Shown: positions 24,922 through 26,796, numbered from the stretch's first letter. The stretch: 64,000 nucleotides of DNA from an uncultured Enterobacteriaceae bacterium (GCA_964651335.1 CAZYVT010000014.1:365-64364), one strand, 5' to 3'. A program made the numbers and translations. Notes: generated by a model not told the origin, from the sequence alone.

Positions 24922-26796
24922 CTATGCCGCCCGCGCGGCCCTCTTGCGCTCGTGCTCCAGCAGCAGGCGCTTGCGGATGCGGATCGCCTTGGGCGTGATC
25001 TCGACCAGCTCGTCGGCGGCGATGAATTCGATCGCGGATTCGAGCGTGTGCTGGATCGGCGGCGTCAGCAAGATCGCCTCGTCCTTGCCTGCAGCGCGGA
25101 TGTTGGTGAGCTGCTTGGTCTTGACCGGATTCACCACGAGGTCGTTGTCGCGGCTGTGGAGGCCGATGACCATGCCTTCGTAGAGCGGCTCGCCGGGGTT
25201 GACGAACATGCGCCCGCGCTCCTGCAGTTTCCACAGGGCGTAAGCGACCGCTACGCCGTCTTCCGCAGACACCAGCACGCCGTTGCGGCGCTCGGCGATG
25301 TCCGGCTTCACCGGCCGGTATTCGTCGAACACATGGCTCATGACGCCGGTGCCGCGCGTCATCGTCAGAAAATCGGATTGGAAGCCGATCAGCCCGCGCG
25401 CGGGAATGCGGTAGTCAAGCCGCACGCGGCCCGTGTTTTTCCCGGTGGCGTCGGGCTGCATGTCGAGCAGATCGCCGCGGCGCGCGCCCAACGCTTCCAT
25501 CACGACGCCCTGATGCGCTTCTTCCACATCCACCGCAAGCATTTCGTAAGGCTCGCAGCGCACGCCGTCGATCTCCCGGATCACGACCTGCGGGCGCGAC
25601 ACGGCAAGCTCGTACCCTTCGCGGCGCATGTTTTCGAGCAGGATCGTGAGATGCAGCTCGCCGCGGCCCGAGACCAGGAACACATCGGCATCGGCGGTGT
25701 CCTCGACGCGCAGTGCGACGTTGCTCAGGGCCTCGCGCATGAGCCGCTCGCGCAACTGGCGGCTGGTGACGAACTTTCCGTCGCGGCCGGCAAACGGAGA
25801 AGTGTTCACCTGGAACGTCATGTTAAGCGTGGGTTCGTCGACCTTCAGGAGCGGAAGCGCTTCCGGATGCTCCGGATCGGCGAGCGTGACGCCGATGCCG
25901 ACTTCTTCGATGCCGTTGACCAGCACGATATCGCCGGCCTGCGCCTCTTCCGCAAGCACGCGCGCCAGGCCTTTGAATACCAGGACCTGGTTCACTTTGG
26001 CGCTGACCGGTGCGCCGCCTTCGTTGTTCGGGCCGCGGAGAACGGCGACCATCTGCCCGGGGCGGATGCGGCCGCGGTTGACACGCCCGATGCCGATCCG
26101 CCCGACGTAGCTCGAATAATCGAGCGCGCAGATCTGCAATTGCAGCGGCCCATCGGGATCGTCAATGCGCACCGGCACGTTGCCGAGGATGGCCTCGAAG
26201 AGTGGGCGCATGCCTGGCTGATTACCCTCGCCCCTCTGGGGAGAGGGCAGGGTGAGGGCTTTGCAGTCGTTCACATCCGTCGTTGCCCATCCCTGCAGCG
26301 CCGAGGCGTAAATCACGGGAAAATCGAGTTGCGCTTCCGTGGCGCCGAGCTTGTCGAAAAGATTGAAGGTCTGGTTCACGACCCAGTCCGGGCGTGCGCC
26401 CGGGCGATCGACCTTGTTGACCACGACAATGGGCTTCAGTCCCTGCGCCAGCGCCTTGCGAGTCACGAAGCGCGTCTGCGGCATCGGACCCTCGACTGCA
26501 TCGACCAGCAGCAGCACGCCGTCGACCATCGTCAGCACGCGCTCCACCTCGCCGCCGAAATCGGCGTGGCCCGGGGTGTCGACGATGTTGATGTGCGTGC
26601 CCTCGTAGGTCACGGCGCAGTTCTTGGCGAGTATGGTGATGCCGCGCTCGCGCTCGAGATCGTTCGAGTCCATCACGCGCTCGACCAGGTGCTGGTGCGC
26701 GGCGAACGTGCCGGACTGGCGCAGCAGCTTGTCGACCAGGGTCGTCTTGCCGTGGTCGACGTGGGCGATGATGGCGATGTTTCGTATGGCTCGCAT
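24922..26796 (-). CDS. typA: Translational GTPase TypA/BipA
   Basis: [25 protein letters not shown] (G1), [13 protein letters not shown], then collinear with E. coli BipA throughout. Start at the internal ATG 26796. The antisense ORF 24952..26982 is rejected. Confidence 0.95.
26218..26259 (-). repeat. 42-bp imperfect palindromic element inserted in frame in typA (encodes [14 protein letters not shown])
   Basis: Plus-strand ccctcgcccctct gggg agagggcagggtgaggg pairs in two stem segments: 26225-26229 with 26254-26258, and 26232-26237 with 26242-26247. This gives 14 extra residues relative to E. coli BipA between YASALxG and (M)xPLYxAI. Confidence 0.7.

Follow-up and report, generated by a model that had tools for sequence, protein, structure and literature searches.

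The 64,000-nucleotide (nt) window that we analyzed (GCA_964651335.1, CAZYVT010000014.1:365-64364, at its full length) carries the gene typA/bipA on its minus strand. The encoded TypA protein has 14 extra residues in one loop, and within the 42 nt that encode them lies a 34-nt core which, judged by its sequence, is a copy of the repeat known as BoxC, PIT or TM_ECO, an intrastrand-triplex motif. We consider it likely that this BoxC-type repeat sits in a loop of the TypA G domain, is translated there and tolerated by the protein, and shares its origin with similar loops, which we call LTLPSP loops, in the TypA of other uncultured Burkholderiales. The features at the locus are as follows.

24922-26796, minus strand: typA/bipA coding sequence, 624 amino acids (aa) without internal stops; translational GTPase / 50S assembly factor.
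26218-26259, minus strand: 42-nt, 14-codon segment that is extra relative to short-loop TypA, placed by aligning proteins and codons to those of 27 relatives and of L036/P0022.
26225-26258, plus strand: BoxC/TM-type repeat core, 34 nt, CCCTCGCCCCTCTGGGGAGAGGGCAGGGTGAGGG, the G-rich strand being the typA template strand; assigned by its match to the known repeat.
26225-26233, plus strand: block 1, C-rich stem CCCTCGCCC, which fits the CCCTCNCCC of the published pattern.
26234-26238, plus strand: loop 1, CTCTG, 5 nt, within the published 3-6 nt.
26239-26247, plus strand: block 2, G-rich stem GGGAGAGGG, which pairs with block 1 with one G/A mismatch ("mm" type).
26248-26249, plus strand: loop 2, CA, 2 nt, where the published TM_ECO pattern has 3 nt.
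26250-26258, plus strand: block 3, second G-rich block GGGTGAGGG, a potential third strand of a triplex.

The open reading frame (ORF) enclosing typA spans 24922-26919 on the minus strand, and the typA start was placed at 26796 by the conserved N-terminal sequence of the translation. TypA matched the solved BipA structures 8EWH, 5A9V and 4ZCI from end to end (E ~1e-238; for 8EWH, E = 1.4e-238 across residues 3-622). It contains the GTP_EFTU, D2, EFG_C and BipA_C domains of the TypA/BipA set, in concordance with the Pfam domains of the identical cluster P0002. The gene is single-copy in the source genome (G000; 4.0 Mb, 65% G+C), a draft metagenome-style assembly of 162 contigs. An earlier note on this DNA had called typA an essential-type gene, a label that is overstated since E. 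coli can do without BipA at 37 C.

We found that the interval from YASALQG to PLFEAI is 28 residues long in the window protein, compared with 14 in the BipA of the solved structures. The alignment with BipA has one gap; it is 14 residues long and follows residue 180 of chain 8ewh_A. The sequence reads as the earlier note had it, with 14 extra residues in frame in typA encoded by 42 nt at 26218-26259, boundaries that are arbitrary by a few nucleotides because the surrounding loop is unalignable. TypA loci were drawn from 29 related genomes, 27 of them with a usable loop, and the 42 nt were absent from typA in all 27, the same-genus L002 (91% aa identity) included. The 21 nearest TypA sequences also lack the insert, and the nearest protein in a database of 5.8 billion clusters, P0022, has a short loop and is 94.6% identical to the window protein outside it. 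At the same site L010, L022 and L026 carry unrelated, non-palindromic extra residues, which suggests that the loop tolerates insertions and deletions. Unrelated longer loops are also found there in many genomes of the order, so that the site is an indel hotspot.

The insert was read from the assembly, and repeats can cause misassembly. Nevertheless, an assembly or binning artefact of the 162-contig draft is extremely improbable: the insert is exactly in frame and shorter than a read, both of its flanks continue as typA, and the same element is present at the same place in independent assemblies from other samples.

The core has the layout CCCTCGCCC-CTCTG-GGGAGAGGG-CA-GGGTGAGGG, and the typA mRNA carries the C-rich complement, CCCUCACCC-UG-CCCUCUCCC-CAGAG-GGGCGAGGG. 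The core is unique within the window, where no match was expected by chance (100 shuffles, three mismatches allowed). On the mRNA strand an 11-bp hairpin with one internal mismatch is predicted. Its folding energy is unremarkable for the G+C content (z = -1.3), and the significance of the element thus rests on its match to a known repeat. When window positions 26212-26268 were compared by blastn with complete E. coli genomes, matches at 90-95% identity were found in 5398 of 5426, at a median of 8 places per genome, and among the matches listed none had an annotated feature beneath it. A scan against Rfam with an E-value threshold returned chance-level matches only (Antizyme_FSE, 21 bits against a gathering score of 40) and no model for the element.

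Holder et al. (2015, PMC4666352) described TM_ECO as a G+C-rich intrastrand triplex motif that had earlier been named BoxC and PIT (potential intrastrand triplex), and cited Bachellier as well as Hoyne & Maher for previous work on it. They give the pattern as CCCTCNCCC N3-6 GGGNGAGGG N3 GGGNGAGGG, with 3610 occurrences in 262 proteobacterial genomes and 1 to 143 copies per genome; E. coli K-12 has 23 copies, "always" intergenic, and the stem with one mismatch ("mm") is the commonest type in E. coli (PMC4666352). We found that 32 of 34 aligned positions of the window core equal those of no. 9 in Table 1 of that paper, with one 1-nt gap besides, and that the first 23 nt of the core, the hairpin part, agree base for base with K-12 copies 9, 16, 19 and 22. 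The three 9-nt blocks CCCTCNCCC, GGGNGAGGG and GGGNGAGGG are all present. Counting against this assignment, the second loop is 2 nt (CA) where TM_ECO has exactly 3 nt. Since the general triplex definition allows loops of 1-6 nt (PMC4666352), we filed the typA copy as a loop-length variant and not as a strict TM_ECO. Single-stranded DNA of the published motif folds in vitro into an intrastrand triplex, as followed by CD or NMR (PMC4666352); for the typA copy the prediction covers the hairpin part. By the comparison of sequences, the 34-nt core is a copy of the BoxC / PIT / TM_ECO motif.

The likeness to that motif lies in the three-block design, the 34-nt length, the one-mismatch "mm" stem and the 90-95% identity to the E. 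coli copies. In contrast, the 2-nt second loop, the effectively single copy in its genome and the location set the typA copy apart: it lies in frame within a gene, whereas the K-12 copies are intergenic. The earlier description as an imperfect hairpin holds for the 11-bp stem with its one mismatch; it falls short of the whole element, which has three blocks and an established name and is not a simple palindrome. The further statement, that a small and G+C-rich palindromic repeat, one of a class widespread among proteobacteria, stands in frame in the TypA loop, was borne out.

Members of the class are also present in related genomes. The hairpin pattern of the class gave 0-28 matches per genome in 40 relatives compared with 0-3 for a reversed-pattern control, and typical forms read CCCTCACCCC..CCCTCTCCC-loop-GGGAGAGGG. 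Most of them stand between genes, frequently as pairs with a spacing of about 100 nt, which is also the E. coli arrangement. Others are found within long ORFs: one ORF of 1057 aa at G027:C14, and three sites in G035 (50% G+C), a genome for which long ORFs were used instead of gene calls based on third-position G+C. In the 1057-aa ORF (positions 2-3172 of L035, G027:C14:14600-18600) two BoxC-type elements are adjacent and in frame (..LSLTLGPSPGGRGKQPPSPSGRSAGDEG..).

The earlier note also expected copies elsewhere in the source genome. When the 60-nt region was compared with the whole 4.0-Mb genome by blastn-short, no second close copy and no intergenic copy were found. The published TM_ECO regular expression gave 0 copies in this genome, and relaxing the second loop to 2-5 nt recovered the typA copy only. 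Allowing up to two substitutions added two further loci, in contigs C19 and C28, both touching ORFs, while a reversed control gave 0. Rather than dispersed multiple copies, the genome thus holds one copy and two loose relatives.

The first of these, at G000:C19:831-881, is a two-armed palindrome that forms the C-terminal tail and stop region (..PSPQPLSRERERGWG and stop) of an FAD-monooxygenase-like ORF. A like arrangement was seen in a same-genus genome, at position 2001 of L031 (..PSPLARRGQGEGGLE and stop). The second, at G000:C28:13444-13488 (L044), is a BoxC-like palindrome in frame in a 1889-aa double-UvrA-like gene. It is read as ASPSPRPSPASGRGEGGEGG and flanked by the ABC signature LSGGEAQRLKL on one side and the Walker B motif LFLFDEP on the other, in a loop that is shorter in most relatives. 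Other, unrelated palindromic families occupy the same loop in frame, with SGSEPDFR.. in G003 (L052, G003:C69) and LDSRFRGNDD in G023 (L053, G023:C34); the L052 repeat reads ..SGSEPDFRHSGISGSDPDFR.. in its context. This suggests that the loop of the UvrA-like protein is a general sink for small repeats.

A fourth candidate copy, at G000:C75:13947-13966, was rejected because this perfect 20-nt palindrome, CCCTCGCCCCAGGGCGAGGG, encodes a conserved CysRS motif, WPSPWGEGRPGWHIEC. A palindrome of this kind mimics the repeat hairpin and can mislead pattern scans. The existence of such mimics is what would speak for taking the typA segment as native loop sequence that came to look like the repeat by chance or by convergence at the protein level. 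We regard that as very improbable, since all three blocks are present with 32 of the 34 aligned positions as in E. coli copies, the segment is absent in the closest relatives, and the class occurs between genes in relatives as well.

We searched a protein database with TypA residues 150-260, and many of the TypA rows returned, from uncultured Burkholderiales/Betaproteobacteria, have loops resembling translated repeats. Seven rows (P0003-P0009) have a loop equal in length to that of the window, in which (P/A)LTLPSPQGGEG is placed as in the window, 8 residues downstream of WAT and 4 upstream of M(K/R). The in-frame pattern common to the window and these loops is LTLPSPxxGEG. Elsewhere among the rows the loop takes other forms: a second element is added in P0018, P0019, P0023-P0025, P0037 and P0038 (YPSPLGRRDGDEG), another reading frame is used in P0054, P0089 and P0107 (PSPSVPLPEGEG), a third spacing is seen in P0056 and P0082 (SLTPNPSPGGRGG), and the loops of P0010-P0016 look decayed (ALTAPSRLPGDDAT).

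DNA was fetched for eight of these TypA rows, and the repeats were confirmed on the coding strand. L037, L039 and L043 carry CCCCTCACCCTGCCC(T/G)CTCCC..GGGG(C/A)GAGGG at the same codon offsets as the window; the L037 element is CCCCTCACCCTGCCCTCTCCCCAAGGGGGCGAGGG, the L039 element ..CCCTCTCCCGCAAGGGGAGAGGG, and that of L043 has one substitution. The loop of L040 contains two elements and that of L042 three, while L038 holds a decayed copy. In L041 (P0107) the loop reaches 82 residues; besides a BoxC-type element it contains 33-nt duplications, three in tandem (GGAGTTAAGCCATCTCTCCTGAAGGGAGAGGGA), and another element. Because at least two reading frames are used in TypA loops, the loop was colonised more than once. 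Long TypA loops were common when 400 genomes, sampled evenly from the order, were searched. Among the 150 rows listed from this sample the 20 longest loops contained no intact element, one partial element (G120) and one decayed element (G336). This suggests that the phenomenon is concentrated in a narrower clade, mostly metagenomic.

These loops bear on whether the 14 residues are specific to the lineage of the window, a question that the earlier note had proposed to answer by an alignment of TypA. The residues are indeed missing from the 27 relatives, yet the same element occurs in the TypA of other uncultured Burkholderiales. Since it stands there in the same position and frame, the event may be old or spread by recombination rather than fresh.

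We built a tree of 136 TypA rows with FastTree after the loop columns were removed. The window TypA was sister to the 21 short-loop rows (clade support 100%, the 21 rows themselves grouped at 87%), and the clade with LTLPSP loops lay in a neighbouring group. Given this sister relationship, a single deletion on the sister side would account for the pattern. The loop flanks of the window and of the LTLPSP loops are equal in length on both sides, with 37-50% identity in the flanks and 79-91% in the element. The M(R/K) that follows the loop, which looks ancestral, is retained in the window TypA, whereas the short-loop clade has LQ. Taken together, we lean toward an origin shared with the LTLPSP loops. 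The element would have been retained from an ancestor and lost in the sister clade; alternatively, the loop allele may have been imported by homologous recombination.

That loop alleles move between lineages can be seen in L039 (P0007). This gene is 92% identical to L041 over its length, but its 5' loop flank is nearer L037 (0.84, 0.78 vs 0.77, 0.51), and its LTLPSP element resembles L037 as well. By the sequences compared, then, the mosaic typA of L039 demonstrates recombinational exchange of loop alleles between lineages.

Several points weigh against a shared origin with the LTLPSP loops. The protein sample was biased, as candidates were picked by words common to the insert-containing query. 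The tree is from FastTree only and has many weak forks. Since rows with other loop types surround the LTLPSP clade in it, several losses or replacements would have to be assumed for a single ancient origin. A long recombination patch was sought in the window typA and none was found; its DNA flanks are nearest L036 right up to the loop, with no L037-like patch, and any import would thus be confined to the loop itself. Furthermore, the motif is intact despite flanks that have diverged to saturation, and it retains CCC-TCT-CCC: two Pro codons CCC, in genes that mostly use CCG, and TCT, a rare Ser codon where TCG/AGC prevail. An intact element with rare codons suggests recency, homogenisation or constraint at the nucleotide level rather than long neutral residence.

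In a rival reading, a mobile BoxC-type element jumped, or was copied through template switching, into typA after the split from the short-loop relatives, independently of the LTLPSP loops. Consistent with such a fresh insertion, the motif is intact, the 91%-identical congener lacks it and so do the 21 nearest TypA rows without exception, and a near-identical copy, CCCTCACCCTGCCCTCTCCGCGCAAGGGGCGAGGG, exists elsewhere in a same-genus genome (G011:C42). Independent insertions into the TypA loop do occur, as the use of at least two reading frames across lineages indicates. However, the genome has no source copy, and the residue offsets of the element are exactly those of three other lineages. In addition, of 10 loop positions beside the element, 6-7 differ from those of the sister clade, in proteins that are ~95% identical elsewhere. 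We therefore think a fresh insertion unlikely, and the sequences indicate that the typA copy is probably not a private recent insertion.

Constraint at the nucleotide level raises a different possibility, namely that the repeat is a functional cis-element kept by selection on the nucleotide sequence. In the mRNA its hairpin might set the pace at which the G domain is translated; in the DNA a structure formed by it might favour recombination nearby and make the loop vary. The element is 79-91% identical across lineages against 37-50% in the adjacent loop codons, and synonymous positions are retained, the rare TCT included. The turnover of the loop is striking, with duplications, multiple elements and a mosaic allele, and agrees with the local sequence instability that has been associated with the motif (PMC4666352). 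On the other hand, decayed copies (L038; P0010-P0016) and complete loss in many lineages show that the element is dispensable, and the motif showed no activity as a promoter, as a terminator or in blocking polymerase in E. coli in vivo (PMC4666352). The conservation could equally mean recency or gene conversion. A role as a cis-element is thus distinctly improbable. We would give slightly more credit to a broader conjecture, which we still judge quite unlikely: BoxC/triplex-motif repeats may have a long-lived "landing pad" in the TypA G-domain loop of an uncultured Burkholderiales clade. There they would be maintained or renewed at the nucleotide level, through selection on DNA or RNA structure or through repeated targeted insertion or gene conversion, possibly by DUF559-type nucleases, and would drive both a rapid variation in the length of the loop and its lateral exchange.

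We looked for genes that might move the repeat. In relatives, inverted BoxC-type repeats, each a hairpin plus G block, stand on either side of small DUF559 nuclease genes, at L100 (G027:C6:98918-102229), L101 (G031:C15) and L103 (G011:C208). The link between repeat and DUF559 is not strict, as no DUF559 match was found in the TM-rich genomes G035, G023 and G022. In the source genome a small DUF559 gene was sought and none was found; the only domain match, at 23.5 bits, lies inside a 1780-aa ORF. The copies in this genome can be seen as relics, which the absence of such a gene and the lack of another close copy fit without proving. Since only relic copies and no small DUF559 gene are present, the element is probably not mobile here today. 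The only Y1_Tnp match in the genome is weak (26 bits) and has no such repeats in its flanks, which gives no link to a RAYT.

We next consider what the insert would mean for the protein. The segment belongs to the G domain, where it follows the G5 motif (YASAL) and precedes the last G-domain helix. Alignment with the BipA structures thus corrects the earlier placement between domains. An AlphaFold2 model was built from 80 close homologues and was poor overall, with a mean predicted local distance difference test (pLDDT) score of 54.5; only its G-domain part was used. G-domain residues ~90-180 were modelled at pLDDT 80-89, and residues 184-193, which lie between helices 177-181 and 197-206, as coil at pLDDT below 50. 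The proposal that a surface loop may tolerate the insert agrees with the modelled coil and with the indel hotspot at this site. Together, the low-pLDDT coil and the indel tolerance of the site suggest that the repeat is translated as a Pro/Gly-rich loop which is probably disordered, as modelled, and is tolerated by the protein. Most likely the repeat is a passenger without a role in TypA function.

Palindromic repeats that stand in frame in conserved genes and are translated as extra surface segments are known as Rickettsia palindromic elements (RPE) and Wolbachia palindromic elements (WPE) (as summarised in PMC3733652). The typA element resembles them in behaviour only, as an in-frame palindromic repeat in a conserved gene. 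Its sequence is unrelated to theirs, and it is 34 nt long in a 65% G+C betaproteobacterial genome, so that it does not belong among the RPE. The comparison with Rickettsia elements made in the earlier note is therefore apt as an analogy. RPE and WPE are ~100-150 bp long and reach high copy number in obligate intracellular Alphaproteobacteria.

Another group, the GTAG/CGTC-tagged REPs, comprises 20-40 bp palindromes in genes of free-living bacteria, often repair genes including uvrA (Di Nocera et al. 2013, PMC3733652). That location in uvrA parallels the in-frame copy in the UvrA-like gene of the source genome. In contrast to these REPs, the typA element has no GTAG or CGTC at its stem ends. 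We rejected membership in the REP/REPIN-RAYT group since the element starts with CCCTC, ends with GAGGG, carries neither tag and shows no association with a RAYT.

At a distance typA is flanked in the window by a Ser/Thr-kinase-like ORF (23287-24564, plus strand) and an ion-channel-like ORF (27585-28772, plus strand). From their translations, both seem to end in cyclic-nucleotide-binding-like regions.

In-frame palindromic repeats and the BoxC/TM_ECO family are both already established, and as the former are a known phenomenon the gain from this case is modest. What this case contributes is typA as a host gene, together with one loop that has been repeatedly occupied, expanded, decayed and exchanged across a clade. 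BoxC/PIT/TM_ECO has been known for about 30 years without an assigned function or means of spread, and the detailed account of it in K-12 places it between genes only. The typA copy shows that in-frame persistence in a conserved translational GTPase is possible for this repeat. The series of TypA loops offers a natural gauge of how fast the motif decays, of constraint at the DNA level and of the local instability proposed for it. For annotation, loop inserts of the "PSP..GEG" type in conserved proteins of G+C-rich Proteobacteria are to be read as repeat-derived and not as lineage-specific functional motifs.

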